Shown here: one piece after another, positions 7,888 to 48,400 of the stretch
How the letters are laid out: every line of letters starts with the position of its first letter
Position numbering within the stretch: position 1 is the first letter of the stretch
Source of the DNA: a virus
Taxonomy: Duplodnaviria > Caudoviricetes
IMG/VR virus record: IMGVR_UViG_3300021387_001666
Location: 44,189-108,188 of that record
Length of the DNA stretch: 64,000 nt
Reading direction: 5' to 3' (one strand)
Position numbers and translations under genes: made by a program
The notes under the pieces: generated by a model
Databases searched by the model: none
Seen by the model: only the letters and a program-made list of their open reading frames with translations
What the model was told of the DNA's origin: nothing

Positions 7888-7897
7888 TATCTTTGCC
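7888..7897 (+). promoter_or_regulatory. -7 promoter element TATCTTTGCC for the portal gene
   Basis: TAnnTTTG motif 25 nt upstream of ATG 7923. Confidence 0.7.
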
Positions 7898-7922
7898 TAC
7901 AAAAAGAGTAAAGATTGTTTTT

Positions 7923-12342: not shown

Positions 12343-12344
12343 TT

Positions 12345-12563: not shown

Positions 12564-12575
12564 TTCATAACTGTT

Positions 12576-12611
12576 GGGGTCTGTAGGTCTTAAGGTTTGC
12601 AGACCCCTTTT
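12576..12611 (+). terminator. Internal terminator/attenuator hairpin
   Basis: ggggtctgtag...ttgcagacccc plus tttt. Confidence 0.7.
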
Positions 12612-12626
12612 AAAATAACAAAGACT

Positions 12627-13049
12627 ATGTATCATAAAGAAATGGGAGGCTATGATGATATTCCTGAGGGAATGAAGATATACATCAATAACTATGGTTG
12701 TCACTTCAGCAAGAAGCTCTATGAGGAAGCAGCTAGTAGAATGTATACCAAGTCTGGAGTCAAGAAGGAGCATATCCCTCCATATACCAGAGAAGAGGTA
12801 GACAGGATGCTGGATAAGTATGGTATCAAGCTCAATAGGAATAAGCTGTATGACCATTGTTATGTTGCTTCCATGTGTGCAAATGATTTCTTGGGTAAGT
12901 CTGTTCCTGACGAAGCTCACATGGCACAGTTCATTAAGGATATGATTGATGACCCTGATGCTACTGAGGGCTTCATCTTCAACCGATTTATTGGCGATTG
13001 CTACTTCATGAACAATCCTATTGAATGGGAAGACATACTGGATGATTAG
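12627..13049 (+). CDS. Conserved hypothetical helical protein
   Basis: YGCHFSKKL...YVASMCANDF...DDPD; start moved to ATG 12627. Confidence 0.75.
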   Translation: MYHKEMGGYDDIPEGMKIYINNYGCHFSKKLYEEAASRMYTKSGVKKEHIPPYTREEVDRMLDKYGIKLNRNKLYDHCYVASMCANDFLGKSVPDEAHMAQFIKDMIDDPDATEGFIFNRFIGDCYFMNNPIEWEDILDD

Positions 13050-22579: not shown

Positions 22580-25500
22580 TTAATAATTGGATGGAGTATC
22601 TTTGAATACTTGGAATATTGAATCATCTTCATCTAAGGTCTGAAGCCTTTCTATGTCCTTAGTAAAAGGGAACATATATTTTAGGAAATTCCTCCAATAT
22701 CTATTTTTACCCTTATGTTTACCCGTCTTTATGGTACTATTTGGACCAATAAGGTCTCCATTGAAAGGTCCATAGAAGAAGGTATATAAAAGAGAATTAA
22801 GGGTGTTAACACCAGCCATAGGTGAATTCAGCATGGTTAGAAGTGAAGACAATGCTTTTGGGTTTGGCATTGATGCCTCAGTTTCTAGTATCATACGTTT
22901 AGTCTGATAAATCCACCAGCGTCTCCAAAACTCTTTTTTATGCTTATCGGGTTCACCTAGTGCAAAGGACAAACCTAACAATGCTATATACATCATCATT
23001 TCCTGATGTACTCTTTTCACATTATAGCGTTGCATTTCATCCAAATTACTCCATTGGCTTTGTGCTCTTAGCATAAAGGTCATATAATCACGCATAAACC
23101 AAGGAAGTGCCATAGAAACACTTTCTCCAAGAGTTGTTCCAATTACTTTAGCTTTACCTAATAGATTCTCATCCCATTGTTCCTTGGTGTCCTCATTAAA
23201 CAGATAATGAAAATAACTTGTCCAATAACCCTCACGTTCCATCCCTAATGATGCATCAAAGTGACGCTTCCTGAATCTACGAGAATAATGCTCTATTGCC
23301 CATTGCCTAAAGTTCATAATTCCACGTCCCCACCAGTGTTGGTGGATTAATCCTTTATCTTCAGCATTCATTGCGCCGTGACAGGTCTGATTACAGTATC
23401 TAATCTTTTTTCTGATAGATTCTATATATTCAGATGTAACAGGGGAATTGTCAAGCATAGTTACCCCATTTTTTAAGCGCAACTCACTATTTCCATCCTG
23501 AGAATTAACCACTTCAAAAGCGTCATATAGTGATATACGTTTACCATTTAAAAGCAGTTTAGTGTTATGTAGTATGCCATACATATTTACATAATGAATC
23601 AAGTATTCTCCAGAACTGTATCCTATAAAAGAACAATCATGGGAAACAAGTTGGCGAAACATACTTTTGTAATATTTGGTATGACTTTTATCACTAAAGT
23701 TTTCATTTAGCGGGTCAAACTTCTCTCTAAAAAGAGTTGCCTTATGACTCATGTTGTTTGTTAGTAACTCCATGATGTCACCTGCTACTCCAGAGGTTCC
23801 AAACAATTTAGAATGTGCCCATGCGTAGTCTTTTAGGTTATAATATTCCCCAGCTCCTGCTTCTATAAGCATTTGAAATTCTCCAACCAAGAAGTTTGCT
23901 ACTGCTCCAGGAACATTGGTTACAAGGCCCTTAAATGAGGTATATGCTATAATTTTATCAAACAATCTTGTTAACAAATGCTCCTCATTAGGATTTCTTC
24001 TCTGTCCATAGATATGCTGTGATATAAATCCATCAATTAATCCAGCAGTATTAGTGTTCTTGCCCCATTTAAACAAGTCCTTGAAGATTCTTATCTGTTT
24101 GTTTTCAATAATATCAGCCTTAGGTTCTTTATCTCTCGCAACCTGTCCTTTGGTAAAATCACCAATAAACTCTACTACCTGAGCAATGTTGCTCATAGCA
24201 TCATAGTTTACAGCTGTACCAGCAAGAGCAGCAATACCAGAGGAGAAGTTTTTCAGGAGTTCATCCTGTTCTACTTTATTGACAAAGAAGATAGGTATCT
24301 GACGCAAGGGAGTGTTATCAAAAGCACCTTCAGTAATCAAGTACTCATCACCATCAATGATACCATTCATATTATAGTTGTCGTCATCTTCTCTTACTTT
24401 CCAAACATTCTCAAACTTGTTTCTGAGAGCCTTTGCTACATCCTTTACATCCTTAGCTTGTCCTAGAGCATCCAACATGTTTCTTCTGAGTTGGGGAGGG
24501 AGATATTGTTTCTGAGCATAAGCAGGAAGCAGAGAACCAATCTCACCTTTAAGCTGCATCATCTCATCATAATATTCCTGTTGTGCCTGTGTGAGTTGTT
24601 GGAATGGCTTTCTATACTGATGGTCTGGAACTCTCTCTGTTCTGCCATTAGTGTTATCCACTACTCTATCCTCAGTATTAGCATCTTCCCAATCCTCAAT
24701 AGCCTGTTTTAAGTCAAAGCCTCTTAAGCCCTGTCTGTACAAGTCTTTAATATGAGCAGTTCGTGCTGCTTTGTAAAGTCCCCAATCAATGTCAGAAATA
24801 ATATGTCCGTCATCCTCATACATAAAAGATGAGTTACTTCCAGACTTATAGAGTTTATCAGTAGCCCTACGGATTCTGATGGACATATTATTCATAATAC
24901 CATCCCTTGAGTCCTGGGCATTCCTGATGATAGTACCCATAGCAGCAATGATGGGATTAGAAGCCCTGCCTACACTATACAAGTAGTCAGAAATACTGCT
25001 GTCAGCAGCAGCCATTCTGATGACATTAATCATAGCCTGTCCATTAGGAGCAGTGCTACCCATGATTTGAGTCATCAGATTAATCATTGTAGATTCTGTG
25101 AGGTTGTCCAAAACTCTTTCCTTTTTATCAAAGAACTCCTTAAGGTCTTTGGCAGACTGACGGATGTTATTTATATCAGTTTGACCAATAGACTCATCAA
25201 TAGTCAGATGTTCATCAGCCAAGGCAGATACCAGAGGATAATATTGTTCCTTAAGAGACTTAATATCCTGAAGGACTCTTGCAGTCTCAAAAGCTTTCTC
25301 CAGCTCTGTGCCAGTCTGAGGAATATTGTTGAGCATATTGTCAATCTCAGAGATTTGAGTCTGGGCTTCATTTAGGAAGTTAAGTACACCAGAGTAATAT
25401 TTTTTATTAGCCAGCTCTCTCATCAACTGATTCAGTACACCTTCCAGTCTCTTACCCTCAACATTATTACCAATCTGTTGTTCCAGCTGTCTGATTTGTC

Positions 25501-26512
25501 TCTGGAGAGTCACTGCAGCATCTGCAGCAGCTTCAGAAAGAGTATTTATTTTATTACCAATGCGGTGAATCTCATTGATGTCAATCTTATACTTTTTGTT
25601 GAGTTGGTGTAGAACTTGTTTCACAGCTTCTTCAGGACTACTTTGAATTACCTGCTGTGACATTTGGTCAACCTGAGTTTTCAGAGCATTTAAGTCAATA
25701 CCTCTATAATTCTTGCAATGATTGACAGCCCTTGCCAATAAAGTCTTCTGAGCATTATTATAACTGCCGGTGTTATGATTAATGTCATCCATAGCCTGAG
25801 CAGCAGCTTCTATAGAACCAAAGCTGTTTATCAATCTTTGTACCTGAGGAGAATTAGCATCCATATTAAACAGTAGCATGGCATCCTTCTTATAGAGATA
25901 ACCTATTGCTACTCTCTGGAGATTCTGAAGTTGAGTTACCAATCCATTATTAGTTGGAGTAAAGGTACTTTTTAGTTCCTGAGGCATGTTTTCTATATCA
26001 ATACCTACAGCAGCAAAAGCCTGTTTCTCTGCATCCCATATCTTTAGTTTTTCCTTAACACCCATAGCATAGGTATGAGTGCGTGAGTTCTTCTCAGCAG
26101 CAATGATATTATAGATGTCACCATGCTGGACTACTGTAGCAGTAAGACCAGTATGAGCATCATTGAAAGCATCAGTCTTCTCAAGAGCTTGTTTACCATC
26201 AGTAAAGTCAATTCTGTTACCATTATTATCAGTGATACCCCATGATATTTCCTCAGAGTTAAGACTACCTATCTCATTAAGCATAGTATAAACATCGAGG
26301 AACTTCATTACATCAGCAGCATTATGTTCTCCCTGAGAGTTTCTCTGATAGCCAGCCTGATCCATTGCATCAGCAGCATTAGAGGCAATATAGGAAGCGT
26401 AGAGCATATTCACCAAAGGTCTGCCTAACTTATTCTTCTCCAAGAGGTCTTTGTACATCTTGCTTGGCTTTCCATTGACCTCAGGATATAAAATACAACT
26501 ATTTCTTGCCAT
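22580..26512 (-). CDS. Large helical virion cargo/ejection protein adjacent to the RNA polymerase gene
   Basis: 1310 aa, mostly helical, hydrophobic C-terminal segments, MNFRQW...EGYW motif; position next to RNAP gene as in crAss-like phages. Confidence 0.65.
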   Translation of the reverse strand: MARNSCILYPEVNGKPSKMYKDLLEKNKLGRPLVNMLYASYIASNAADAMDQAGYQRNSQGEHNAADVMKFLDVYTMLNEIGSLNSEEISWGITDNNGNRIDFTDGKQALEKTDAFNDAHTGLTATVVQHGDIYNIIAAEKNSRTHTYAMGVKEKLKIWDAEKQAFAAVGIDIENMPQELKSTFTPTNNGLVTQLQNLQRVAIGYLYKKDAMLLFNMDANSPQVQRLINSFGSIEAAAQAMDDINHNTGSYNNAQKTLLARAVNHCKNYRGIDLNALKTQVDQMSQQVIQSSPEEAVKQVLHQLNKKYKIDINEIHRIGNKINTLSEAAADAAVTLQRQIRQLEQQIGNNVEGKRLEGVLNQLMRELANKKYYSGVLNFLNEAQTQISEIDNMLNNIPQTGTELEKAFETARVLQDIKSLKEQYYPLVSALADEHLTIDESIGQTDINNIRQSAKDLKEFFDKKERVLDNLTESTMINLMTQIMGSTAPNGQAMINVIRMAAADSSISDYLYSVGRASNPIIAAMGTIIRNAQDSRDGIMNNMSIRIRRATDKLYKSGSNSSFMYEDDGHIISDIDWGLYKAARTAHIKDLYRQGLRGFDLKQAIEDWEDANTEDRVVDNTNGRTERVPDHQYRKPFQQLTQAQQEYYDEMMQLKGEIGSLLPAYAQKQYLPPQLRRNMLDALGQAKDVKDVAKALRNKFENVWKVREDDDNYNMNGIIDGDEYLITEGAFDNTPLRQIPIFFVNKVEQDELLKNFSSGIAALAGTAVNYDAMSNIAQVVEFIGDFTKGQVARDKEPKADIIENKQIRIFKDLFKWGKNTNTAGLIDGFISQHIYGQRRNPNEEHLLTRLFDKIIAYTSFKGLVTNVPGAVANFLVGEFQMLIEAGAGEYYNLKDYAWAHSKLFGTSGVAGDIMELLTNNMSHKATLFREKFDPLNENFSDKSHTKYYKSMFRQLVSHDCSFIGYSSGEYLIHYVNMYGILHNTKLLLNGKRISLYDAFEVVNSQDGNSELRLKNGVTMLDNSPVTSEYIESIRKKIRYCNQTCHGAMNAEDKGLIHQHWWGRGIMNFRQWAIEHYSRRFRKRHFDASLGMEREGYWTSYFHYLFNEDTKEQWDENLLGKAKVIGTTLGESVSMALPWFMRDYMTFMLRAQSQWSNLDEMQRYNVKRVHQEMMMYIALLGLSFALGEPDKHKKEFWRRWWIYQTKRMILETEASMPNPKALSSLLTMLNSPMAGVNTLNSLLYTFFYGPFNGDLIGPNSTIKTGKHKGKNRYWRNFLKYMFPFTKDIERLQTLDEDDSIFQVFKDTPSNY

Positions 26513-26586: not shown

Positions 26587-29500
26587 TTAGCAGAGCTTTT
26601 TAAACTCTGCCAGGGCTTCCTCTTTAGTAAGGTTCAATCCTTTTTGCTTATAAACATTTACCAAGAATCCTGCATAAAGGTCAGGTTTTTCCTTCATCCT
26701 CTCTATTTGATTCAGAGCCTGAGTCTTATTGAACTTAGGATTCTGCTTCTGTATTAAATCAGCAAGTTCCGCAACCTGCTTGGTCTTCTCACTGTCAGTA
26801 GTAATGTCAGTGGTAGAAGTCTCCGCAGCTTCTGCCTCAGCAGGACTGATAGCCTGAAGTTCAGACTCCTGCATATCCTCTATGGTCTCCTTGGTCTCAC
26901 TCATAGGTTTGGTGATGTCAGAAAGATTCATTTCCAGATATTCTGCATTATTACCTAAAGGCTTTACCATGACATAATTCACAGCAGTCTTGTCAGCAAT
27001 AATCTGTTTCCAGAGATAAGTCTGGCCATTATGACGAGTCTTAATATAAGTACTACCTTTCAGGTCAGCCATATCCTTAGGGTCTCTTGCCACCAAAGTA
27101 CCCCTCTTTAAATCTACTGTATAATGAGTACCTTCACCGCCCTTCTTGGGAACCAGTTTGTTGTTATCCCAATTATTGCGAACCCACTGGTCTATTACCA
27201 CATTAGGATTTACACTGGGGAACATTCTATAGGTATCCACATAAGTAGCCTGAGAGCCATTACCAAGGTCAGTGGAGAGTCTTTCCTTAACATAAGCTGG
27301 AACTAAAGACATAAAAGTCTTGGGACTAAAACCTATGCCAGCACGGAAGAAACAGTACTCAAAGAGCTGCTTGGAAAGTTCGGGATTATCCTTATGCAGG
27401 TCTATCCATGCATTTCTGTACATCTCTTTCTGAGACTCATCAATACCAGTGATATTGATAGAGAGAAATGTTCTTCCAGTTCTCTTGGATACATTCTTCC
27501 TAATAGCGGAGATTAAGGCATTGTCAGCATATTTCTCCTTGAATTTCTGGTCATTGAAATACTTGGGGAAGTTATCAATGAATCTCTTTAGATTAGCAGG
27601 ATTCACCATACGGGATGCAATGAGTAGGTATGACTGATAGAAGTTGCTCAGATTGTCCAAGAGCTTCTTATCATTATATACCTTATCTGTTAATCCCTCA
27701 GGCAGAGTAGCCAGCAATTCTCTAAAACCAGTACTACCAGCAGGCATGTCACTGAACATTGCTTTGGCAATATCCACAGTACGAGAGAACTCTTTCAGTA
27801 TAGGATGGTCATAGAAGATGTCATCAATGTCTACAGGATTACCTTTAGAGTCATAGAAGTGAGTACCATCCTCAGAAGCAGCATCTGTGAATTGTTCCAT
27901 CTTATGCTCCATAATAAGGTTGTCAATGATAAGGGGCCCTACAGCACTTGAAACAGAATTGAACCTTGTGGCAAATGTAGGTTTACGTATGGCATCTACC
28001 AAAGACCTTATCTTTTGGAATGCCAGCAACACCTTATAATCAATAACCTCATGGTCTTCAGAAGTCAATCCTTCTACCAACTCCTCTCTTGACAGTGGTT
28101 CTGTATTGATGTTAGAACCGTCATCAATGTTATGCTTGTCACGTAGGTTTCCTATATGCTCCTCAATGATAGTAGAGAGAGGCTTATAATTAGTCAGATT
28201 CTCACGATTAAATTCATTAAGTACTCTTTCGATTACCTCCTGAGACATGAAGAGAGATGCATCATTAGGTGCCATACCCAATCTAAGCAAAGTATTGAAC
28301 ACACCAGCAGTAGTGAGATTAATGTTCATCAGATTTAATACAGGAGTCTTGGCAGCATCAGCAGATGCTGACACACCAGCACCTATAGTCTTACCAATGA
28401 GATTACCTTCATTGTCATGGCTCGGATCAACCTTCATCCTTCCACTAAACTCTGTATCAGCTATGATAAAAGGTTCATTGCCACAGATTTCATCAACAGC
28501 TACATAGTAGTCATTGCTTTCCAGAGTAGCATGAGCCACCTTATTGACAGCAAATACACCAATCAGTGAGGCAGCAGCAGCATTTTGCTTGTAGAACTGA
28601 ATCTGAGTGTCCAGCCAAGTTAAGTCTTTGTCAGTATAACTCAGTTTGTTCAATTCATCAATAGACATCTGCTGGAGCTGTTCCCAAGAGTAGTTATTAG
28701 CAGAATTCTTATAGGCAGCCACCATGTAACCAGCTCTCTTGAATACATCAAAACCACCAGGGTTAAGAATTTTATCGGCAGTCATCTCATTGGTCAGTAC
28801 AGCCCAAGTCATATCCACTATCTTATTGTCCCTATATTTCCTGCCAGAGGTAGGAGCATTAGTAGTATAAGCTACCTTCTGATACTGACTATAGAGCCAT
28901 TGGGTGAAGGCACTCTTGCTTCTCATAGTGTCAGGAGAGTCAAGGAATACCTCAATCTCACTGGCTATGTTGGCAGGAAGTTCCTTACCATTATGTTGCT
29001 TCTTGTAACTATCCTCTACTATGTCAAAGAGTTCTTTGTGAATGATATGCTTGGGTTTTCTTACAATAGGAATATCCTTGCGCATCACATATCTCTTATC
29101 CACATCAAAGTCTGAATCATCAATCTCAGTCAGTTCATAGGGGAACATAATGGCATCACCAGCTTCCCTTGGCATGAAACCTACAGCCTTCATAGGAGCA
29201 CAAGAGTATTTGTCCTCTGTCGGAATTCTGGAGGAAATCATCTTCAGGAGTTCAGGATCAGTAGCTTCCAGAGCCTCCATATTGATAGATCCGTTCTCAT
29301 TGGAGAATTTCTCAAAGATTTCATTAGCCCACATGGGGATAAATACCTCAAAGTATGCAATACCAGCCTGATTCTGCTTGACATATTCCTCATAGGTCAT
29401 ATTGCCTGATGCAGTCTTTCTGTCATACCTTGCATTGAACTTATCAGTCTGAGACATCTCTTTTTTCAGAGGATTCTGCTCATACTCCTCACGGGTCATC

Positions 29501-32500
29501 AACAGTCCACCATCCTTACTATTGAACCTGATATGCAGCTGACGTGAAGTACCAAAGTTAGTTACCTGAACTATAGGTCCTCCAGCAATCTTCTGTTTGT
29601 TTACACGGTTCTTAATAATAGAGTTGATAAGTTGCTCAATACGCTTTGCCTGAATAGGGTCTCCCTTTGGTATTCTGAACTCACCAGTCTCCTTATCAAT
29701 GGAGCAGGCCTGAATAAGGTCTATGCCATATCGAGGGGAAGAGAGTATTTCCCTCTGAAGAATTTTAGATAGAGCAATATTGCGCTCCTTCTTATCTTCA
29801 CTGTTGATGTGCAGCTCCTGAGACAGCTGATCAATACTTTCACGGATATTATCAGCAATGGTCTGTTCATACTCACGTCTGAATTCATTAGCCCTTACCT
29901 TCTTTTTAGTGCCGTCAGGTTCAGTCCATTCATAGAACACCTGATTGTCAGGATCATTGTGGTCTGCATTAGGATTTTTATAGAGGTCAAGGTCAGAAGG
30001 AATAATCATTCTTATCTGAGAGCCATGAGCCTGAGAGTGATTCTTGAAGTGTTCAGGAACCTCCTGCTGCAGACAGTAGTCCTCATATAGACCCTCATGC
30101 ACATAAGTATCAGTAGCATACTCATTGGAAGGATTGCCTTGGTCATCCAATTTGTATACCATTCTCTTCATGTACTCATAAGCAGCTTCCTCACCACCTT
30201 CCATATCTAAGAAAGGATTGAGGTCTATAGGAGCCTGAAGGCCAGACTTAATGGCAGAATCAAACTGAATAGTGTCAATACCCTTAGTAGGATTTAATCT
30301 CTCACTATCTTCCATTACCCTGTAGATAGCTCTTAGGATATTAGGCTTGGAAGTCTTTTCACCTTGCAAAAGGGCATCAGCCATGATGAGCAGGTACTCA
30401 GAGTTCTTGGCTTGGAAAGGTACTGGCATCTGATGGATGGGAGCATTGTCTATACCCATATCATTCTGAAGATGAGTATATACAAAAGGTTTCAGAGGCT
30501 GGAAAGCCACTTCCAAGTCAGTGTAGTTATAGTCACCCTTTAGCAGTTTCTGATAGATGTCTTCTGCCTGTCTTGACCACTTACCAAAGATAAATGCTTT
30601 CTTTCTGTAGGATGAAGGTGAGGAATATGCCTGTCCATCAGTCACATCAATCTTGGTATATCTGCCATTCTCACCTACAAGAGATTCCTTCAGTGCCTTG
30701 AGTTGAGCTTTCTGTCCTTCAGGAGCGGCAGCAATCTTACGGTCAAATACTTCTGCTATATTGGCAATGAGGTCAGTCTTGAATTTCTGCAAACCTTGAA
30801 TAAGGACAGTGCGGTATTTTCCATCAGAAACCCTGTTGCCATTATAGTCAGTAGCAGCCACATTACCCCTGATACCAGGAGCATGTATCTGTGCTAAACG
30901 TTTCTGAAGGTCTTCTGCATCCTTATAGAAAGCAATGTCAGTAATTGTCAACTGGAGAATGTTCTTTGCAGCAAAGTTATCATTCCATAGGAAGTTCTCC
31001 AAGTTAGTCCTAATCTGGGCATCCTCAGTACCAACACCTTCAATATTCTTAGCAGCTTCAATGATACCACTATTCTCCCATTGACTGAGGATAGTAGCTA
31101 CCCTGTTCTCCATATCCTGCCTGATAGCTTGATCAACCAAAGTAGAGAGCTTTGCCTCTTCTTCAGCAGTCAGAACCTCCAGACCATTGATCTTCTTCTG
31201 AAGCAATTTGGCCAATTCAGAGCTATTGTTCTTCTCCAAGAACTGATTAAGGAAAGGCAGGAAGTTGAACTTTCTACCATTAGTGTCAAAGTTGGCAATG
31301 AAATCAGCATCACCCTTTGAGTGATTCCTCATGTTGACAGTTTGGATTCTGGAGAGTTCCTGATTGAATATCTGGTGCAGGCCATAGATGATTTCATCCT
31401 TATAGTTAGTACCTCTGTAGGAATAGAACTTGATGAACTCAGAACTGGGTTTATTAGACATAATAGGCACCCTGAACCATGCAGGAACCAGAGCCTCCTT
31501 TTTCTGACCAGTCTCAGCAAAATATTCAGTAATGAGAGACAAGGTATATTCAGCATCACTCATGTTGCGCATATAGTTATGCTTGTTGAAGTTCAACTCT
31601 ACCTTGTGGTCAAATACCTTACGGGCATTTTCATCAGTAGCCAGCAGTCTGAGCCATTCATTCCTCCATCCCTTGTTGATGTCCCACTGGTTCTTTGCAG
31701 ACTTGAACCACTCAGTACTTCCATATTCCTGCATAATAAAGTCTTCAAACTCCTGACCTTCCAAACGGAACTTATTCATCAGTTTAGTCATAAAGGAAGG
31801 AGTAACATAGGACTGATACATCTTACCTGAATCATAAAAAGCACTAACAGCAGTATCCTCCAGAGTATCTGTGATAGGAGTCAGGAAGTTACGCAGAGTT
31901 CCTGCTATACCATTATCAGAGTTAAATGCAAATGGATTATAGATCTTTGCATTGGGAGTACCAGCATTCCTGAATTGTTCTTCTCTTGCTGCATCCAGAG
32001 ACCTTACCATAAAGCCAAGGCTCTTAGTCATCTTAGAAAGATTCTCCTCATTTATAACATCAGAAAGCATTTCCTCAGTAACAGGATACCCTATCACCTT
32101 ACATACTCCCATGATATTGGCGGCAGCCTCCTTAGACATAGCATTATCCAACTGCTCGCCATGCTGTAATCTGTCCTGAATAGTATTCAAGGCAGTCAGA
32201 GCCTGATGGAGATTAAAGGGAGACTTAGCATCTATAGTGTTGTCTGAACCCAAGAGTTTTCTGTTAATACCCTTGTCAGTAAACAAAGGATGCTCACCAA
32301 TCTTAAATTGAGTGGTAATGGTCTGCATAGCTTCAGAGAGTGCAGGATGACTATTTACAGGGATGCTGTGATACTTACCATCTTCCAGTAATACCACAGA
32401 ATAAGGCTGGAAGTGCTTGGAGAATACCCCAAAGAACTGGCTTTGGAAGTCTGTTTCTTTACCACTCTTGTCAGACAATCTCTCTATTAACTGGTTAAGC

Positions 32501-35500
32501 CAAGGATTCTGAGTAGCCTTTCCTTGCATCTTACCTATCATGTCTTCCAAGGTCAGAGAACCCTGAGTCCATCTAAGGATGCTATTCACAGCCTGACGGG
32601 GATTAATCCTTTCAGCAATGCCCCATTTACTCATCACCTTGTTACCCTCCTTATCCATCTGATAGCATTCATGCAATGCAAGCCTTACCATCTGAGACAT
32701 GGAGTTTAATACATCGATAGTTCTTTGCTCCACCTGCCAATGCTCCTGCTCATCCTTTTCTGACTCTGCCATAGCATCAGGATCATTACTGTAGTCATTG
32801 AAGTTATCAAAGTCCACAGTAGAGTTCTGGGTAGTAGCAAAACCACCCTTGTCATAGTTACGCATAATGCCAAAGCCTTCAGTCATGGCAAAGGTATCAG
32901 TAGCAAGAGTCATAATGGCATCCCAGTTATCAATAATAAGGTCTGCTTGGTCAATGGTATCAAAGTCCTCATAGTCATTTTGTTCAGGGTCAAACTGTTG
33001 CTTTGCCCTATGAATAAGGTTATTGATGCCAATAGCTTCTACAATCTCTTTGCGAGAAGCATTTTTAAAGTCCAAGTCTGTCTGGATATTTGGGAAGAAT
33101 TTCTCAGCTGCCCCTTCTTCTTTTTGCAGGATGGTAATGGTATCACTGATGGAGTTAACCACTAGTTCAGCCACATGCCTTATTTCAGAAGCAGAGATAA
33201 TATTGCTGTCTAGCAGATTGTTAATCTGCTGAGTCATCTTCTCAAACTCTGTGAGATTCTGTTCCACTTTTTCATTTGTCTTAGGTTCATCAGATAACAG
33301 GTTGAGCAAGTCCTCTTGGTTCTTAGCCTCAAGGATTCTTGTCATTCTGTCAAGGATGTCATTGTTTTTTTCTGGAGTCAGTTCAGTATTTATCTGACTG
33401 TCCAGCTCCTGAAGCATAGGAATCTTCCAAGAAGCATCTACAATAGTATCCTCAGTTTTGTCCATGAAGTACTCATAACTTGGAAGAGAGACTCTTTGAG
33501 GTTCTTCTGGAGCTTCCACAGGCAACAAAGCATTAGGATCGGGGAGATAACTTTTCTGATGCTCTACAGCTTCATTATACTGGTCTTTAGTAAAGTGCTT
33601 TTCAATAACCTCACCTTTGGCAGCATCACCTATCACCATAAATACAACTTCAGGATTACCATGATTGGTAGCAATATTGTCATGGTCATACTTCATGTTG
33701 TAGTCCATAGAGGATGCAACCTTGGCTCCAAGTACCCTTTCATAGATTTCCTTTAGTGGCTGCTTGCTACTGTTATAGGTATCCAGATGTGTAGCCCCTT
33801 GCTCTATTAGATAAGGAGCAACAGCACTAAGGAAGCCTTTATTTAGTTGCAGATTGAATAATGATACAAGATTACCATCAGGTTCAATAGCAAAACCACA
33901 AGTTCCGTCCTCATTGAGGTAACATTTACAGTTACTATAGTCATCATGCAAATCTACGAGTTCTCCATTCTTAGTATAGAACTTGACTACTTCAAATATA
34001 TCATGGAATAATTGTGGGTCTACTTGCTCATGAATAGTAAATTTTGTACCAGTCTGGGAATGAGTTAATACCCTTGTGCCCAAGCTACTAAAGCCGCTCT
34101 GGGACTCCAGTTCTCTTTGTAGTAATTTTCCAAGACGTTCTGTGGCATCTTGTCCAATTCCTCCTTTTCCCACGGCTCCATTACTGCCTTTTCTAACTGC
34201 TTCTTGTACTCTTCTAAACTCATTGCTGTATTTAATTTGATTATTATTAGAACGATTATCTCCTTGGTTTATTGTATTAAAAGTATCATCATTCCAATGG
34301 TCAGTCCATTCTTTATTAAATTGGACATTAGAAGGAACTTCGCCAGCCTGTTTGAACATAGCAAGCATTTCCTCTCCCAAGTAACCATTTAGAGATAGTT
34401 TACCAAAAGGATAATGAGATACCTTAAACTGCTTGTCAGGATTCTGACGAGCTGTCTCATACAGTTTCTGAATACCTTCTATTATCTGGTGAGGAGTCAT
34501 TGACCTTTCAGCATTCAAAGGGTGGCTCTGCATTTCAGAAAAAGAATGATTTTCATACCACTCCTTGACTTCCGTCTCTTCTTTAGGGCTAGGTCTGTAC
34601 CACCTAGTGTTTTTAGCCTTGTCCAAGTTTTTAGTAGGGAGAGCATAGGCACTGCCCTGTAGCCCTTCTCCTTGACCTTGAATGGCTCCAAACTTAGATT
34701 TAGCTGTAGCTGCTGTCCCAGCACCATGAATGCCTTTTGGATTACTTCCAAACACAAAGACTGTATTAGCATCAGGAGTAATTAAACCCTCATAGGAAGC
34801 AGGAACTCCATTGTTATTTGAAATCTTACTCTCCGTACTGGTAGTATTTTGGGGAGCTAAAGGACTGCCTTCTGTCTTCACATTATTAGATATGATAGTG
34901 ACAGTGTTAGTAGCTCTTGATACACCCACATATTCCAATTGCTGACGGACATTAGCAATATTAGGATTACTACCGGGGGTCTCTTCAGCAGGAACTGAGG
35001 ACAAATCACCTAAGTCAACATCTTCAGAACTTCTTATTTCCATAGAAGCATCAGCAATAAGTCCTGCATCACCCAAGTCTACTACAGACATGGCATTGGC
35101 AGCATTATTTAAGGTGTTACTTGCCTTTGCCACATCAATGTCATCCATGAGGACATGAGTAAAAGTAGAACCTTGAGACTTGTGGATAGTCAGTGCATAG
35201 CCAAAATCAACAGTCTTAGGCTGGAGAAGATTATGAGTGGTAGGATCTTCAATGTTGTCATTGACAAAGAGGAATTGGTCAATAGAGTTAATCTGAGACA
35301 AGATATTACCCTTAGCTTCCCTGCCAACAGCACGTCTGTATTGTTCCCACAAAGTTTTCTTCTGAGTAGCCAACTGAAGAGCAGCTTGCCTATTCTCCTG
35401 ATTGCCCTTAATATCCATATAATTAAAGGTATCAGTTTCACCAAGAGAGTTCTCCATAGTGATAGGAACATAAGTCATGGTAAATTCTTGACCATTCACT

Positions 35501-38034
35501 GAAATCCTAGACTGAGCTGGCTTTCCTACTTGAGTCACCTTATAGCTCTCAGAATTAATGAACCTGTAGCCTCTGGTATATCTGTCATAACCCCAGTTAG
35601 AATAACCTGTAAGAGGTTCACCCACATGAGGTATAGAATCATTATAGCCAAGGAGACTTCTTACATAGTTGTTATAGTCTGTAACAGCCTTGTTGGTATA
35701 AGCCAAAATCCTGAAGAAGTTAGAATTATCCTTTAATCCTTGGATATACTGTCTGATAACCTTGCCAATTTCTTCACGGCTCTTAGGAGTAAGATAACCT
35801 ACACCTTCTCCTCTTTCATTGAAACTGGATTCACCTGACAGAGGCTTACCATTACGGATATTAGTAGCTTCCTTCAAGATTGCATTGTCATCAGTACGTT
35901 CTACCTGAGTAAGTTCTATTACCCTTCCTTCGGAGTTGCGGAATACCTTAGACACCTGAGTTTCATTGACAGGAGCCAATTGAGCTTTATCCCCTACATA
36001 AATAATCTTCAGACCATTCTCACGGGCTATTCTATTGAGAATACCATAGTTCTCTTCATTAATCATAGAGGCTTCATCTATGACCACTGTAGTGCCTGGA
36101 GTTACATTTGCTTCTTTTAATGCAGTTACCAGATTCCTTGCATTATAAGCCTTTGAAGAGTCAACTTCTACATTAATACCAAACACCTTGTTAAGAGTTT
36201 GAGCATCAAAACCAGCCTTAGATACTCTGGATTTCAGAACAGCAGCAGCCTTGTTAGTAGTAGCACTGAACATAATAGCCTTATGCTGCCTCTTAGCCTT
36301 CTGAGCAATAATCTCCATAAGGGACGTCTTACCAGTACCGGCATAACCTGAGAGAGTCATGGTAGTCTCATTTGAGTTGAGGAAATCATTCATGACATTC
36401 AGTGCTTCTGCTTGCTGTTCATTAGGCTTAAATGGAACAGTAACAGTAGTACCATCATTGAAAGTGAAAGGCTGTGGACCAATCACCTGACGCTCCTTCT
36501 TGGAAGGTTGCTTGGGTTTCTCTATAGGCTTTGCTGTTACAATACTATTATCAATCTTATATGTTCCATTACGTTGTAGGTCTGGAGTATTAAGCCTTAG
36601 GTCAGCATCAATAACCACCAAATTTCCATTAGGAGTTTTTATTACATTCTCATTATGAAGATCTGAAGCATATACAAACTCTGTTGTATAAGTATTGCCT
36701 CTATCCTTGCTAGTTTTCTTAAACCCTGCTTTCTTCATAAAATCTTCTATCTCCAATAATGTAGGAGCTATACCTTCCACAAAGGGCTGGTCAACAATGA
36801 ACTGGAATTCTCCTTTTCCATCTCTTCCAAATCCTACAACCTTTAAAGGGGCTGCTGGGAATAATGTATTGTGTAGAGTGATTCTATCAAGAGCAAATTG
36901 TGGAGTAATGAAATACTCTGTTGAAAGCACTTTCCTAATAGTGTGGCTATCCTTTCTATAGATTTGTGCCTCACCACCATCCATATCCTCATAATGCTCC
37001 ATACCTTTGGTTGCCTTATGAAGATTATCAAACCATACTCCTTGAGCCTTAGCCCAATTCTCTATTATTGCTTCTTGGACAGGTTGTTGTCTTTGGTCTC
37101 TTTCATACCTTTCGGCACTTGAGAGGTTCTGTGATTTTTCCTCATTTGTTCCACCATATCCTCTGAGGAGTAATGACGCTTCTGCATGGATTTTACCTCC
37201 TCTACGGAATCCTTCTGTTGCTTCCTGAGGAAATCGTTGATAAATGAATTTCCCATTTTCAATACCTTTTGCTAAATATTCTAATGCTTTTATTTGTTTT
37301 GGAGACCAGTCTCTCTTAGTGAGTACTCCTTGTTCCTCAGTTGCTCGTAAACTGCTGTTTCGTCCCTTGATGATGGCCTGTGATTCTCCAAGTAGTCCCA
37401 CATCTGCTGATGAGTTCCCTTGACTATCAGTTCCTGCATTTCCTTTACTTCTGCCTTCATATTTATCTAACTGTAATATTTGTTCTAAGTTACTAAGTAC
37501 TTTTTGATTGAGTTCTTGAGTCATTGTAGGTGCAAAGGTAACACTTTTTTCTGAATTAAGCATTCTCTGCCTACTAATTAACTCATAATCTCTTTCATCT
37601 TGCTCTGTAATAACAGGTATCATATTGCCTTCAGCATCATATACAGGAGACAACTTACCATTAGCAAGACTAAGCTTTTCTACAGGCTTCTTGATTCTTA
37701 ACACAAAGTTACCATCAGCATTCTTGTATCTTACTACAGCCTCCTTAGGAAAATAGGTAATAGCTTCAACCCATGCTATATTGGATTCATTCTCACTATT
37801 AAAAATCTTAGGCTCTTGGTAAGATGCCTGCCAGAAACTTCTAACCGTAGGCATTGATTCTACATACTCAATGTTACCTAACTGAGCATTGATGTAAATA
37901 TCAGAAGGAAAGACATCTTCCTGACCAGACTCCCTGTAGTACTTATGTATGATTTGCTCCAGTATGTTACTGTCCAGACTCATTTTTCTGGCTAATCTTA
38001 TAAACTCAGGGCTGTTCTTATCTACACATACCAT
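26587..38034 (-). CDS. Virion-packaged RNA polymerase polyprotein (phi14:2 gp66-like) with N-terminal passenger domains
   Basis: 3815 aa; SRIPTEDKYS and DSDFDVDK (29098-29112) catalytic motifs; N-terminal kinase-like, SF1 helicase, A1S_2505-like and GNAT-like segments. Confidence 0.9.
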   Translation of the reverse strand: MVCVDKNSPEFIRLARKMSLDSNILEQIIHKYYRESGQEDVFPSDIYINAQLGNIEYVESMPTVRSFWQASYQEPKIFNSENESNIAWVEAITYFPKEAVVRYKNADGNFVLRIKKPVEKLSLANGKLSPVYDAEGNMIPVITEQDERDYELISRQRMLNSEKSVTFAPTMTQELNQKVLSNLEQILQLDKYEGRSKGNAGTDSQGNSSADVGLLGESQAIIKGRNSSLRATEEQGVLTKRDWSPKQIKALEYLAKGIENGKFIYQRFPQEATEGFRRGGKIHAEASLLLRGYGGTNEEKSQNLSSAERYERDQRQQPVQEAIIENWAKAQGVWFDNLHKATKGMEHYEDMDGGEAQIYRKDSHTIRKVLSTEYFITPQFALDRITLHNTLFPAAPLKVVGFGRDGKGEFQFIVDQPFVEGIAPTLLEIEDFMKKAGFKKTSKDRGNTYTTEFVYASDLHNENVIKTPNGNLVVIDADLRLNTPDLQRNGTYKIDNSIVTAKPIEKPKQPSKKERQVIGPQPFTFNDGTTVTVPFKPNEQQAEALNVMNDFLNSNETTMTLSGYAGTGKTSLMEIIAQKAKRQHKAIMFSATTNKAAAVLKSRVSKAGFDAQTLNKVFGINVEVDSSKAYNARNLVTALKEANVTPGTTVVIDEASMINEENYGILNRIARENGLKIIYVGDKAQLAPVNETQVSKVFRNSEGRVIELTQVERTDDNAILKEATNIRNGKPLSGESSFNERGEGVGYLTPKSREEIGKVIRQYIQGLKDNSNFFRILAYTNKAVTDYNNYVRSLLGYNDSIPHVGEPLTGYSNWGYDRYTRGYRFINSESYKVTQVGKPAQSRISVNGQEFTMTYVPITMENSLGETDTFNYMDIKGNQENRQAALQLATQKKTLWEQYRRAVGREAKGNILSQINSIDQFLFVNDNIEDPTTHNLLQPKTVDFGYALTIHKSQGSTFTHVLMDDIDVAKASNTLNNAANAMSVVDLGDAGLIADASMEIRSSEDVDLGDLSSVPAEETPGSNPNIANVRQQLEYVGVSRATNTVTIISNNVKTEGSPLAPQNTTSTESKISNNNGVPASYEGLITPDANTVFVFGSNPKGIHGAGTAATAKSKFGAIQGQGEGLQGSAYALPTKNLDKAKNTRWYRPSPKEETEVKEWYENHSFSEMQSHPLNAERSMTPHQIIEGIQKLYETARQNPDKQFKVSHYPFGKLSLNGYLGEEMLAMFKQAGEVPSNVQFNKEWTDHWNDDTFNTINQGDNRSNNNQIKYSNEFRRVQEAVRKGSNGAVGKGGIGQDATERLGKLLQRELESQSGFSSLGTRVLTHSQTGTKFTIHEQVDPQLFHDIFEVVKFYTKNGELVDLHDDYSNCKCYLNEDGTCGFAIEPDGNLVSLFNLQLNKGFLSAVAPYLIEQGATHLDTYNSSKQPLKEIYERVLGAKVASSMDYNMKYDHDNIATNHGNPEVVFMVIGDAAKGEVIEKHFTKDQYNEAVEHQKSYLPDPNALLPVEAPEEPQRVSLPSYEYFMDKTEDTIVDASWKIPMLQELDSQINTELTPEKNNDILDRMTRILEAKNQEDLLNLLSDEPKTNEKVEQNLTEFEKMTQQINNLLDSNIISASEIRHVAELVVNSISDTITILQKEEGAAEKFFPNIQTDLDFKNASRKEIVEAIGINNLIHRAKQQFDPEQNDYEDFDTIDQADLIIDNWDAIMTLATDTFAMTEGFGIMRNYDKGGFATTQNSTVDFDNFNDYSNDPDAMAESEKDEQEHWQVEQRTIDVLNSMSQMVRLALHECYQMDKEGNKVMSKWGIAERINPRQAVNSILRWTQGSLTLEDMIGKMQGKATQNPWLNQLIERLSDKSGKETDFQSQFFGVFSKHFQPYSVVLLEDGKYHSIPVNSHPALSEAMQTITTQFKIGEHPLFTDKGINRKLLGSDNTIDAKSPFNLHQALTALNTIQDRLQHGEQLDNAMSKEAAANIMGVCKVIGYPVTEEMLSDVINEENLSKMTKSLGFMVRSLDAAREEQFRNAGTPNAKIYNPFAFNSDNGIAGTLRNFLTPITDTLEDTAVSAFYDSGKMYQSYVTPSFMTKLMNKFRLEGQEFEDFIMQEYGSTEWFKSAKNQWDINKGWRNEWLRLLATDENARKVFDHKVELNFNKHNYMRNMSDAEYTLSLITEYFAETGQKKEALVPAWFRVPIMSNKPSSEFIKFYSYRGTNYKDEIIYGLHQIFNQELSRIQTVNMRNHSKGDADFIANFDTNGRKFNFLPFLNQFLEKNNSSELAKLLQKKINGLEVLTAEEEAKLSTLVDQAIRQDMENRVATILSQWENSGIIEAAKNIEGVGTEDAQIRTNLENFLWNDNFAAKNILQLTITDIAFYKDAEDLQKRLAQIHAPGIRGNVAATDYNGNRVSDGKYRTVLIQGLQKFKTDLIANIAEVFDRKIAAAPEGQKAQLKALKESLVGENGRYTKIDVTDGQAYSSPSSYRKKAFIFGKWSRQAEDIYQKLLKGDYNYTDLEVAFQPLKPFVYTHLQNDMGIDNAPIHQMPVPFQAKNSEYLLIMADALLQGEKTSKPNILRAIYRVMEDSERLNPTKGIDTIQFDSAIKSGLQAPIDLNPFLDMEGGEEAAYEYMKRMVYKLDDQGNPSNEYATDTYVHEGLYEDYCLQQEVPEHFKNHSQAHGSQIRMIIPSDLDLYKNPNADHNDPDNQVFYEWTEPDGTKKKVRANEFRREYEQTIADNIRESIDQLSQELHINSEDKKERNIALSKILQREILSSPRYGIDLIQACSIDKETGEFRIPKGDPIQAKRIEQLINSIIKNRVNKQKIAGGPIVQVTNFGTSRQLHIRFNSKDGGLLMTREEYEQNPLKKEMSQTDKFNARYDRKTASGNMTYEEYVKQNQAGIAYFEVFIPMWANEIFEKFSNENGSINMEALEATDPELLKMISSRIPTEDKYSCAPMKAVGFMPREAGDAIMFPYELTEIDDSDFDVDKRYVMRKDIPIVRKPKHIIHKELFDIVEDSYKKQHNGKELPANIASEIEVFLDSPDTMRSKSAFTQWLYSQYQKVAYTTNAPTSGRKYRDNKIVDMTWAVLTNEMTADKILNPGGFDVFKRAGYMVAAYKNSANNYSWEQLQQMSIDELNKLSYTDKDLTWLDTQIQFYKQNAAAASLIGVFAVNKVAHATLESNDYYVAVDEICGNEPFIIADTEFSGRMKVDPSHDNEGNLIGKTIGAGVSASADAAKTPVLNLMNINLTTAGVFNTLLRLGMAPNDASLFMSQEVIERVLNEFNRENLTNYKPLSTIIEEHIGNLRDKHNIDDGSNINTEPLSREELVEGLTSEDHEVIDYKVLLAFQKIRSLVDAIRKPTFATRFNSVSSAVGPLIIDNLIMEHKMEQFTDAASEDGTHFYDSKGNPVDIDDIFYDHPILKEFSRTVDIAKAMFSDMPAGSTGFRELLATLPEGLTDKVYNDKKLLDNLSNFYQSYLLIASRMVNPANLKRFIDNFPKYFNDQKFKEKYADNALISAIRKNVSKRTGRTFLSINITGIDESQKEMYRNAWIDLHKDNPELSKQLFEYCFFRAGIGFSPKTFMSLVPAYVKERLSTDLGNGSQATYVDTYRMFPSVNPNVVIDQWVRNNWDNNKLVPKKGGEGTHYTVDLKRGTLVARDPKDMADLKGSTYIKTRHNGQTYLWKQIIADKTAVNYVMVKPLGNNAEYLEMNLSDITKPMSETKETIEDMQESELQAISPAEAEAAETSTTDITTDSEKTKQVAELADLIQKQNPKFNKTQALNQIERMKEKPDLYAGFLVNVYKQKGLNLTKEEALAEFKKLC

Positions 38035-38059: not shown

Positions 38060-38069
38060 TGCAAAGGTA
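38060..38069 (-). promoter_or_regulatory. -7 promoter element TACCTTTGCA for the RNAP gene
   Basis: 25 nt upstream of ATG 38034. Confidence 0.75.
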
Positions 38070-38140: not shown

Positions 38141-38173
38141 AAAAAAGAGGGAACAGCATAGCCATTCCCTCTT
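38141..38173 (-). terminator. Terminator ending the replication-gene block
   Basis: aagagggaa...ttccctctt hairpin with T tract on the minus strand. Confidence 0.8.
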
Positions 38174-38178: not shown

Positions 38179-38358
38179 TTATTCTTCAGTATATTCTTGA
38201 ATAAAAGTTCCAACCATCTGATAAAGAAGCTTTAAGTCTTTCATAGATAAGGTTGGTGTTTCAGAAGCATACCTACCTAGGATAATACTAATTTTAATGT
38301 CTCTGCCATATTTGTCTGGCTCATCAGTGTTGTACACTTTAAATTTATAGTCTTCCAT
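38179..38358 (-). CDS. Small hypothetical protein (59 aa), not in ORF track
   Basis: MEDYKFKVYNTDEPDKYGRD... Confidence 0.55.
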   Translation of the reverse strand: MEDYKFKVYNTDEPDKYGRDIKISIILGRYASETPTLSMKDLKLLYQMVGTFIQEYTEE

Positions 38359-47242: not shown

Positions 47243-47785
47243 TTAATTATTTCCAGTCCCCTCACCGAAGCCCTTTCTTTCAGGATTATTCAGTGAAGAC
47301 ACCCTTTTGAGCTGTACTCCTGATGATAACAACCATCTTAATTTCTGCCAGCATGTTGCTTTTTGGGAGAGCTCCATCTTAAACTGTGCGATTCTTGTAC
47401 CTTTAGGAATAGTAATAGCTCTGGTGGCTACAACAGGTAGCTTCCACTCATCCTTATCAGATGAATAGCTTCTGTCTATAATACCCTCGGAATTAACCTG
47501 TATAAGACCCCATTTCTTGAATGTGGAACTTCTGGGCAACAGATGACACTCCATACCCTTCGGAGCTTCCATGGCAATACCAAGAGGAATGAGAGTAGAA
47601 TCAAATTCCACATCTCTTGTCCTGACCTCAGCTACATTTTCCTTACCTTTGTTTCTGATATGCATTTTATGGGCTTGAGGAGCCTTCAGAGTAATATCTG
47701 TGGCTGTTACAAGGTCTATCCAATCTCCCTGTTCAAACTTTACAGGAAAACATCCTGCTGTTTTCTCTAATACTTTTATAGTCAT
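47243..47785 (-). CDS. dut: Trimeric dUTPase
   Basis: DWIDL, PRSS, GIIDRSY, RIAQF, RKGFG.G motifs. Confidence 0.9.
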   Translation of the reverse strand: MTIKVLEKTAGCFPVKFEQGDWIDLVTATDITLKAPQAHKMHIRNKGKENVAEVRTRDVEFDSTLIPLGIAMEAPKGMECHLLPRSSTFKKWGLIQVNSEGIIDRSYSSDKDEWKLPVVATRAITIPKGTRIAQFKMELSQKATCWQKLRWLLSSGVQLKRVSSLNNPERKGFGEGTGNN

Positions 47786-47922
47786 TTTCTCTTATACTCT
47801 TTTGTTTTTGCCTTAAGGCTTGTTATAATTGTTCCTATGTTTATGTTCCCTGGATATTCTTTTTGTATTTCCTCCAAGATACAATACCAGTTTGTGTACT
47901 TATTATACTCTGCTTCAGTCAT
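47782..47922 (-). CDS. Small hypothetical protein (46 aa), not in ORF track
   Basis: Overlaps both neighbours by short ATGA-type junctions. Confidence 0.5.
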   Translation of the reverse strand: MTEAEYNKYTNWYCILEEIQKEYPGNINIGTIITSLKAKTKEYKRK

Positions 47923-48400
47923 TTCTCTGCATTAATTTGGTTATGTCTCTCCAACTCTTTCCTATAGTATAGTCAGAAAAGTACTTACTATATTGATACA
48001 ATCTCTGGTTAGTAATAGGAGAATCTAATCCTCCAAGTTCTATATCAAAGTGTCCAAGTTTACAATAATCCAAGTGCTCAAGGATGCCAATCTTATCTTT
48101 AGGAATTCTGTCTAACCCACAATACCATGCAGTCTTGACTCTCTTATGAGCATACATAAACAACTCTGTAAGTGCGTCTATGTCTGCCTCACCTCCGAGT
48201 AATAACAGGCATGTAATACCTTGATGCTGATTGAGTAGACCACATAGAGTTTCTACATCAAGGGGAGTACCTTTGTCTTCCCAGAGCTCTCTTTGGTTGC
48301 ATCCAACACAATGAAGTTGGCATCCAGAGATAGAGAGTCCCAGGCTTATCTCACCTGGGATCTCTCTAAAAATTTCCTTACAATAAATATATTTCAACAT
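47915..48400 (-). CDS. nrdG: Anaerobic RNR activating radical-SAM protein
   Basis: GCQLHCVGC (CxxxCxxC), LGGE, TNQRLY. Confidence 0.92.
   Translation of the reverse strand: MLKYIYCKEIFREIPGEISLGLSISGCQLHCVGCNQRELWEDKGTPLDVETLCGLLNQHQGITCLLLLGGEADIDALTELFMYAHKRVKTAWYCGLDRIPKDKIGILEHLDYCKLGHFDIELGGLDSPITNQRLYQYSKYFSDYTIGKSWRDITKLMQRND

Follow-up and report, generated by a model that had tools for sequence, protein, structure and literature searches.

The giant RNA polymerase described here is encoded on the minus strand of a 64,000-nucleotide stretch of DNA (the window) of an uncultured crAss-like gut phage. The window covers bases 44189-108188 of the 108,188-bp IMG/VR virus record IMGVR_UViG_3300021387_001666, a metagenome-derived record that is ~93% complete by estimate. 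The gene, termed P0001, comprises a head module, a passenger slot and the body of a crAss-type virion RNA polymerase (vRNAP) in a single open reading frame (ORF). In the best explanation, which we consider probable, the fixed head, the hypervariable slot and the vRNAP body make up a carrier, and the exchangeable passenger cassettes in the slot are packaged and ejected into the host. The gene and its modules are arranged as follows, where residue n corresponds to window position 38034-3(n-1):

26587 to 38034, minus strand: P0001, the whole polymerase gene, one unbroken ORF of 3,815 residues
37525 to 38034, minus strand: N1 head module, residues 1-170, with a conserved core at residues ~1-125 that starts with M-x-C-V; shared by 153 cluster representatives
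36535 to 37314, minus strand: kinase cassette, residues 241-500, with the Kinase-PolyVal domain at residues 319-482 (36589-37080)
34858 to 36453, minus strand: predicted Dda/RecD-like superfamily 1B (SF1B) helicase, residues 528-1059, matched by phrog_325, AAA_30, PIF1, UvrD_C_2 and 3UPU
34225 to 34857, minus strand: A1S_2505 cassette, residues 1060-1270, with the family match at residues 1092-1243 (34306-34761)
33514 to 34224, minus strand: predicted GNAT-fold cassette, residues 1271-1507, with a helical lead-in before the core at residues 1330-1471 (33622-34047)
26590 to 33513, minus strand: RNA polymerase body, residues 1508-3815, homologous to PDB 6VR4; the last residue is a conserved cysteine

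An initial annotation of this DNA had placed a kinase-like domain, a RecD/Dda-like SF1 helicase, an A1S_2505-like domain and a GNAT-like segment ahead of the core of a crAss-type virion polymerase. The carrier, all four passengers and every motif quoted for them were recovered here, the first three passengers through family matches and the fourth through its fold, without a sequence-family match; the borders claimed for them lie within ~20-60 residues of those found here. The polyvalent character proposed for the protein was likewise borne out, as four enzyme-type domains, Kinase-PolyVal among them, are joined to an RNA polymerase in a portal-bearing phage with combinatorial relatives. A presence/absence comparison with related polymerases, also suggested there, gave the expected outcome: the slot of relatives houses different modules of polyvalent type, and near-identical genomes swap cassettes. 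The injected host-modification toolkit that the annotation proposed would depend on packaging of the whole chain, and the helicase may equally well act on phage DNA on behalf of the polymerase.

By homology, the C-terminal ~2,300 residues are assigned to the crAss-type two-barrel vRNAPs. Residues 2924-3631 (27142-29265) align to residues 1324-2030 of PDB 6VR4 chain A (gp66 of phage phi14:2) with an E-value of 2.7e-12, and the catalytic metal-binding motif DFDVD (DFDxD) is found at residues 2975-2979 (window positions 29098-29112); D2805, D2807 and D2809 (P0002 numbering) are invariant among relatives. Comparison by tblastn over ~2,000 residues showed that the body is 52% identical to that of phage cr116_1 and 27% identical to gp50 of crAss001, and the body is colinear in all relatives. 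Both phi14:2 gp66 (2,180 residues) and crAss001 gp50 (2,412 residues) possess the homologous two-barrel body, the DFDxD motif and an adjoining gp49/gp65-like cargo gene; however, they are devoid of passenger enzymes, whereas the window protein has ~1,500 residues ahead of its body. As only ~225 residues precede the shared core in gp50, ~1,300-1,500 residues of the window protein are extra. The gp66 of phi14:2 is packaged in the virion, translocated and transcribes the early genes (preprint 10.1101/2020.03.07.982082). The crAss vRNAP subunits have been described as ejected cargo, and the cargo genes are proposed to be transcribed late by the host polymerase (PMC10136315).

The head module invariably forms the very start of the protein. 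A HMMER search with residues 1-170 against 1.8 billion cluster representatives yielded 153 proteins, in all of which, fragments excepted, the N1 match begins at residue 1-5. The 58 representatives with a length of 2,300 residues or more all contain the polymerase body, which starts anywhere from residue ~200 to residue ~3,300; the helicase was detected in 21 of these 58 long representatives, the kinase in seven, and the A1S_2505 and GNAT domains in four each. N1 also has a homologous counterpart at the start of cr116_1 gp051 (E-value of 2e-8), and no similarity to the N-terminus of crAss001 gp50 was detected. Searches of Pfam (E-value up to 1) and PHROGs gave no family for N1 and nothing usable on N2. 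In the overall layout, a ~125-residue head that always occupies residue 1 is followed by a hypervariable slot for the passengers and by a ~2,300-residue polymerase body.

At least 810 giant proteins homologous to P0001 were found in ENA, JGI, Logan and NCBI assemblies. In the 120 nearest homologs, head, helicase and body keep a colinear arrangement, whereas any intervening module may be present or missing, occur twice or change its place. Altogether ~25 sequence modules occur in 48 different orders, with the exact order of the window protein seen once; as the modules were defined by greedy masking, and U1 and U5 are composites, these counts are approximate. Other slot occupants recognised by Pfam in relatives are ART-PolyVal, NADAR, cpYpsA SLOG and DUF7831, and a second Kinase-PolyVal type likewise occupies the slot in one relative; ART-PolyVal, NADAR, cpYpsA SLOG and the second kinase type are classic conflict domains. 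As descriptive counts that are uncorrected for relatedness, the A1S_2505 domain is found in 11 of 15 ART-bearing versus 15 of 105 ART-less homologs, and Kinase-PolyVal in one of 15 versus 89 of 105. The sole protein with both ART and kinase has a NADAR domain and lacks A1S_2505. This distribution suggests that ART and A1S_2505 form a writer/eraser pairing, and that ART and kinase are alternative protein-modifying "alleles" of slot A. A search of the phage's own genome for ART-PolyVal found none, and the control genomes were silent too. In most relatives (P0006-P0033 and others), an extra module of ~220 residues with the zincin-like HExxH sequence HEVLH sits between head and kinase (residues ~170-390). 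This module is missing from the window phage and its closest kin, and is a candidate for the protease that processes these proteins.

The closest named relative, gp051 of cr116_1 (Pamirivirus faecium, Steigviridae), follows the same layout. It shares with P0001 N1 at residue 1 and an A1S_2505 domain (47% identity, E-value of 5e-44), which in gp051 lies directly ahead of the body; by contrast, its slot is occupied by ART-PolyVal, without kinase, helicase or GNAT domain, and its polymerase gene is split by a LAGLIDADG endonuclease gene. This endonuclease gene (PF03161, E-value of 9e-25; L001 positions 12242-12889, corresponding to NC_055882.1 positions 47634-48281) divides the polymerase body between gp051 and gp049.

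Comparison of the window gene with the DNA of its two closest relatives, L019 and L020, revealed that the cassettes are exchanged as units. L019 is 89% identical over the DNA for residues 1-1059 and 1511-3815, and has 281 unrelated residues in place of residues 1060-1510. L020 is 89-92% identical over the DNA for residues 1-240, 501-1270 and 1508-3815; its residues corresponding to 241-500 are replaced by the other Kinase-PolyVal type (36% identity; PF18762, E-value of 1.9e-31), and those corresponding to 1271-1507 by 238 unrelated residues. Three cassettes (kinase, A1S_2505 and GNAT) thus have sharp DNA borders that coincide with the domain borders derived from the folds, and they are exchanged by recombination between ~90%-identical phages. 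Apart from the second Kinase-PolyVal type, searches of Pfam (E-value up to 1) and PHROGs gave nothing usable on the alternative cassettes of L019 and L020. The anchors that flank slot B are invariant, KxEGSPL at the end of the helicase and VSLPxYEYF at the start of the body, and no repeated linker peptide was seen by eye at the cassette borders.

The ratio of nonsynonymous to synonymous substitution rates (dN/dS), calculated by the Nei-Gojobori method for the window gene against L019 and L020, is 0.03-0.06 for the helicase, 0.09 for the kinase, 0.17 for A1S_2505, 0.15-0.19 for the N1 head and 0.04-0.07 for the polymerase body. The low-complexity stretch of residues 171-318, with a ratio of 0.55, is the sole relaxed region. 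The passengers are under purifying selection (dN/dS of 0.03-0.17).

A fusion of this kind could be mimicked by a chimeric assembly or by gene calling that runs separate genes together; the source record is a metagenome-derived IMG/VR contig, and cassette-swapped strain mixtures exist that could in principle assemble as mosaics. We find such an artefact hardly credible. The frame of P0001 runs for 11.4 kb without a stop codon, homologous giant proteins were recovered in the hundreds from four sources of assemblies, the cassette borders are domain borders, and all domains are intact and under purifying selection. Moreover, L019 and L020, which were assembled independently, keep the same continuous frame and the same flanks, so that three independent assemblies agree. 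A megablast search of the polymerase gene against the phage collection gave no match.

The kinase cassette contains a Kinase-PolyVal domain (PF18762), with an E-value of 5.2e-35 and 121.2 bits against a cut-off of 27, covering profile positions 3-159 of 160. It has the motifs GGEAQIY (residues 353-359), LDRITLHN (382-389), DQPFVEG (415-421), DLHNENV (458-464) and VVIDAD (473-478). The ATP-binding GGE (residues 353-355), Lys368 of strand 3, Asp458 and Asn463 of the catalytic loop and the metal-binding Asp476, as well as the motifs DLHNENV and VID, are kept in 95% or more of the 63 distinct kinase copies compared; the domain is a predicted protein kinase. Kinase-PolyVal has been reported mainly from polyvalent proteins that are encoded by phages of Bacteroidetes and Verrucomicrobia (PMC5512222).

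The A1S_2505 domain matches the NCBIfam family A1S_2505_Nterm (NF049995) over positions 1-109 of 109, with an E-value of 5.6e-24 and 84.5 bits against a cut-off of 45, and phrog_2072 with an E-value of 1.4e-25; its motifs are VFVFGSN (residues 1092-1098) and IHGAGTA (1102-1108). Its structure was predicted by AlphaFold for residues 1080-1262 from an alignment of 11 sequences from IMG/VR loci. Exhaustive structural comparison of this model by VIA-align placed macro domains at the top, with Z-scores of 9.9-8.1. Among them are alphavirus nsP3 (PDB 4GUA, Z 9.8; PDB 3GPG, Z 9.2), Q8A8B0 of B. thetaiotaomicron (PDB 2AFC, Z 9.4), DarG of M. tuberculosis (PDB 5M3I, Z 8.9), TARG1 (PDB 2LGR, Z 8.8), these five chains aligning over 120-137 residues at a root-mean-square deviation (RMSD) of 3.3-4.0 Å, and DarTG (Z 8.3). 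Foldseek likewise ranked macro domains first (probability 0.99, E-value of ~8e-3). Against a viral structure library, the best matches were cr116_1 gp051 and the "DNA helicase" of cr50_1, followed by small Klebsiella and Escherichia phage proteins and then by macro domains. The conserved FGSN..G.HGxGxA of the domain resembles the N..GGG loop of macro domains, as judged by eye. The A1S_2505 model superposes on the macro domains of TARG1 and DarG, as well as on nsP3 (Z 8.8-9.8); it differs from them in that no Pfam Macro family matches the A1S_2505 segment at an E-value up to 1, and its ADP-ribose binding is a prediction. Taken together, the model assigns A1S_2505 to the macro fold, and the module probably binds or removes ADP-ribose. 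An insertion of ~31-37 residues, RWYRPSPKEETEVKEWYENHSFSEMQSHPLNAE (residues ~1139-1170, window positions ~34525-34620), has low confidence in the model and is absent from cr116_1 and from all 10 aligned IMG/VR homologs.

The last passenger shows GNAT-like motifs at residues 1380-1394 (GFAIEPDGNLVSLFN) and 1413-1418 (GATHLD). Neither Pfam at an E-value up to 1 (including Acetyltransf) nor PHROGs has a family that matches it, and it matches neither of the two polyvalent GNAT families of Iyer et al., as judged by sequence families. We collected and aligned 49 small stand-alone homologs, none of which carries a Pfam domain. The AlphaFold model reaches a predicted local distance difference test score (pLDDT) of 91.2, and all its top Foldseek matches are GNAT acetyltransferases, with E-values of 2.5e-4 and below. 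Superposition by VIA-align gave a Z-score of 9.6 with an RMSD of 2.6 Å over 130 of 152 residues (PDB 1Y9K), and all 101 chains with a Z-score of at least 8 are GNATs. Residues 1330-1471 are thus modelled as a divergent GNAT fold that represents a viral family outside Pfam. A feature search of the ESM Atlas with this segment found unnamed viral clusters only. A structural look-alike with a template modelling score of 0.60 belongs to a viral cluster with Phage_Mu_F, which is known as a carrier of effectors packaged in the head, and is a lead only. Three of the 12 cysteines of P0001 fall within 11 residues of this domain, in the segment DYSNCKCYLNE (residues 1367-1377, window positions 33904-33936) and at Cys1379, and Cys1371 is almost invariant in the 49 stand-alone homologs. 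This may represent a catalytic or metal-binding trait of a kind uncommon among GNATs.

The helicase region is matched by the Dda-like phrog_325 of PHROGs (E-value of 2.8e-75), by AAA_30 of Pfam (E-value of 1e-31) and by the structure of Dda (PDB 3UPU, E-value of 7.7e-12), in addition to the Pfam families PIF1 and UvrD_C_2. Its motifs are GYAGTGKT (residues 563-570), DEASM (653-657), GDKAQLAPV (681-689), TIHKSQGST (949-957) and YVGVSRA (1035-1041). Within them, the SF1B motifs I (GTGKT, 566-570), II (DEAS, 653-656), III (GDKAQL, 681-686), V (HKSQG, 951-955) and VI (VSRA, 1038-1041) are invariant in relatives. From its family membership, the enzyme is predicted to unwind DNA in the 5'-3' direction at the expense of ATP. 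The window helicase and Dda of phage T4 have all SF1B motifs in common; Dda is a free protein, whereas the window helicase is fused to a polymerase and has an acidic insertion between motifs V and VI. This low-complexity insertion spans ~75 residues (residues ~958-1034, window positions ~34930-35160), contains repeated "DLGD" elements and is kept in relatives; the corresponding loop expected in Dda is much shorter. The 108-kb genome encodes no other Dda-like helicase, and PADLOC returned helicase-like matches only. No Dda-like helicase was found in the genomes of crAss001 and cr116_1, and for this reason we regard it as an accessory enzyme and not as the replication helicase in the family.

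A comparable fusion occurs in another Crassvirales family. The "DNA helicase" gene of cr50_1 (gp059, 4,774 residues; Cohcovirus, Suoliviridae) contains a vRNAP core at residues 2730-3228 (PDB 6VR4, E-value of 4.6e-29), as well as a Dda-like helicase with an A1S_2505-like domain behind it, which together show 35% identity to residues 523-1245 of P0001. In cr50_1, however, the helicase-A1S_2505 pair is C-terminal, after the polymerase, which points to an independent fusion. As the same pair is joined to the vRNAP at opposite ends in two families, we argue for a functional link between them.

These features bear on a different reading of the protein, in which the passengers form a transcription and entry accessory set that works for the polymerase and the phage genome and not for host modification. 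The helicase would open or pull in the entering DNA, and the other domains would have regulatory or protective roles towards the polymerase or the DNA. For instance, the kinase or the GNAT domain might end the self-inhibited state of the packaged enzyme, and the macro domain might clear ADP-ribose from phage DNA. The gp66 of phi14:2 efficiently transcribes single-stranded or denatured DNA and poorly transcribes double-stranded DNA, its packaged form is self-inhibited and requires activation, and its eukaryotic relative QDE-1 requires the helicase QDE-3 and RPA (10.1101/2020.03.07.982082). Given the poor use of double-stranded DNA and the dependence of QDE-1 on QDE-3, opening of DNA by a co-delivered helicase is a reasonable role. 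The constraint on the helicase, which equals that on the body, its fusion to opposite ends of the vRNAP in two families of crAss phages and its rank as the commonest passenger also speak for an accessory set. However, 37 of the 58 long representatives, as well as crAss001 and cr116_1, are without such a helicase, and the polymerase can therefore do without one in cis. Kinase, ART, NADAR, SLOG and GNAT domains belong to the typical effectors of biological conflicts (PMC5512222), and their rapid swapping looks like an arms race rather than housekeeping. Overall, we regard it as unlikely that the passengers are solely an accessory set.

The surroundings of the gene bear on its expression and on the packaging of its product. 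The neighbouring features are the following:

38062 to 38069, minus strand: putative Bacteroidota-type -7 promoter element TACCTTTG, read from the sequence, 28 nt 5' of the ATG
38141 to 38172, minus strand: terminator-like hairpin AGAGGGAA...TTCCCTCT with a T-run, read from the sequence, which ends the upstream unit
38181 to 38357, minus strand: small ORF of ~58 codons directly upstream, which ends at the terminator-like hairpin ahead of the putative polymerase promoter
22580 to 26512, minus strand: partner gene 74 nt downstream of the stop codon, homologous to gp49 of crAss001 ("RNA-polymerase subunit", cargo protein; BLASTP E-value of 2e-52)
7893 to 10328: portal gene

The element TACCTTTG fits TAnnTTTG, which we take to be the consensus of the Bacteroidota promoter -7 element. 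As the upstream unit is closed by the terminator-like hairpin, the polymerase gene appears to begin a unit of its own. The gp49-like gene is also next after the polymerase gene in L019 and L020, and the genes for portal, PolA, NrdD and ThyX are found around the polymerase gene. Cysteines are scarce in P0001 (12 in 3,815 residues), and two of them are residue 3 (38026-38028) and the last residue, Cys3815 (26590-26592). The terminal cysteines are kept in nearly all full-length relatives, with the N-terminal M-x-C-V in 113 and the C-terminal K-x-C in 111 long homologs, and the gp49-like neighbour has a Cys6. The conserved terminal cysteines may serve as a tethering or metal site.

For the preferred reading, that of a packaged and ejected carrier, we propose the following course of events. 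The polymerase gene would be expressed late from its own host-type promoter, and the whole chain would be packed in the capsid together with its gp49-like neighbour, by homology to phi14:2 gp66 and crAss001 gp50. As for phi14:2 gp66, the chain would be ejected unfolded with the DNA into the Bacteroidota host and refold there, and the passengers would act at once, ahead of any phage gene expression. The kinase and GNAT domains may attach covalent modifications to proteins or metabolites of the host. The macro-fold domain may bind or remove ADP-ribose marks, an activity that could counter ADP-ribosylating defences or balance phage ADP-ribosyltransferases. The helicase would load on the entering DNA and supply the single-stranded template that is favoured by this class of polymerase.

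Several points weigh against this proposal. Full-length packaging is extrapolated from relatives without this passenger region, as gp50 has only ~225 residues before its core and N1 was not detected in it. The macro assignment rests on a model of medium confidence (pLDDT of 75.5) with middling Z-scores, and the co-occurrence counts behind the suggested ART-A1S_2505 pairing are uncorrected for relatedness. After strand 4 of the GNAT domain there is no clear Q/RxxGxG/A acetyl-CoA motif, its place being taken by NKGFLSAV (residues 1398-1405; homolog consensus KGFLxAI), and the domain may therefore not be an acetyltransferase. In addition, no protease module was recognised in P0001 by Pfam scans, so that the protein offers no evident means of releasing the passengers.

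The question of release leads to another reading, in which P0001 is a polyprotein cleaved in the producing cell, so that the body, perhaps together with the head, alone is packaged; the passengers would then not be injected but work at a late stage of infection or during assembly. Huge fused crAss polyproteins were indeed proposed to be "likely cleaved into individual components" (10.1101/2020.03.07.982082), the HEVLH module of the relatives lies between N1 and the kinase, and a host-type promoter of its own fits late expression of the gene. Yet the window copy has no recognisable protease module, and the vRNAP of phage N4, an analogous polyvalent polymerase, is packaged unprocessed (PMC5512222). 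Moreover, the fixed position of the head at the extreme N-terminus of every relative is hard to square with discarding everything between head and body, and enzymes that act late need no fusion to a cargo protein. Cleavage before packaging is thus, in our view, quite improbable.

Polyvalent proteins were defined by Iyer et al. in 2017, who included N4-like virion RNA polymerases with zincin, ART, lysozyme and BECR RNase domains as fusion partners, and listed kinases, GNATs and helicases among the components (PMC5512222). P0001 resembles these proteins in its many unrelated effector-type enzymes per polypeptide, in the Kinase-PolyVal and, in relatives, ART-PolyVal domains, and in its combinatorial architectures; they are delivered from the capsid, whereas delivery of the window protein is proposed by analogy. 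The N4-like carrier also differs, being a T7-like enzyme unrelated to the crAss two-barrel polymerase. For the crAss phages, Yutin et al. in 2021 described a transcription block of "several large, multidomain proteins" (PMC7886860), and Drobysheva et al. noted fusion into "a single huge polyprotein", as well as a zincin domain in gp65 orthologs (10.1101/2020.03.07.982082). Polyvalent N4-like virion polymerases and huge multidomain crAss transcription proteins are therefore known already. In the literature, we found no paper that describes the head-plus-slot layout, these cassettes or their exchange, and no explicit fusion of a kinase, helicase, macro or GNAT domain to crAss RNA polymerases. 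New here are the fixed head with its hypervariable slot, the 48 module orders in the 120 nearest homologs, the cassette swaps, the purifying selection and the opposite-end helicase-A1S_2505 fusion in cr50_1.

A bolder proposal goes beyond the packaged and ejected carrier, and we offer it tentatively, as a possibility that we doubt more than we believe. The slot, between the fixed head and the body, would be a dedicated site at which recombination continually exchanges injected enzymes (kinase/ART alleles, macro/NADAR/SLOG ADP-ribose modules and the new GNAT family), the polymerase gene would be the main first-strike counter-defence locus of these phages, and the helicase would be the missing factor with which a polymerase that prefers single-stranded templates starts on incoming double-stranded DNA.

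Two families gain a structural assignment from the predicted models, A1S_2505 to the macro fold and a viral family outside Pfam to the GNAT fold. Among the phages of the human gut, Crassvirales are the most abundant, and how they take over Bacteroidota cells in the first minutes is a question on which the passengers may bear. For gp66-type polymerases, which use double-stranded DNA poorly in vitro, the fused helicase suggests a testable way in which transcription of the incoming genome could begin. If the slot is indeed an injected and rapidly exchanged kit, its occupants would provide a ready catalogue of early takeover and counter-defence activities, and the slot itself could mark host adaptation at the strain level.

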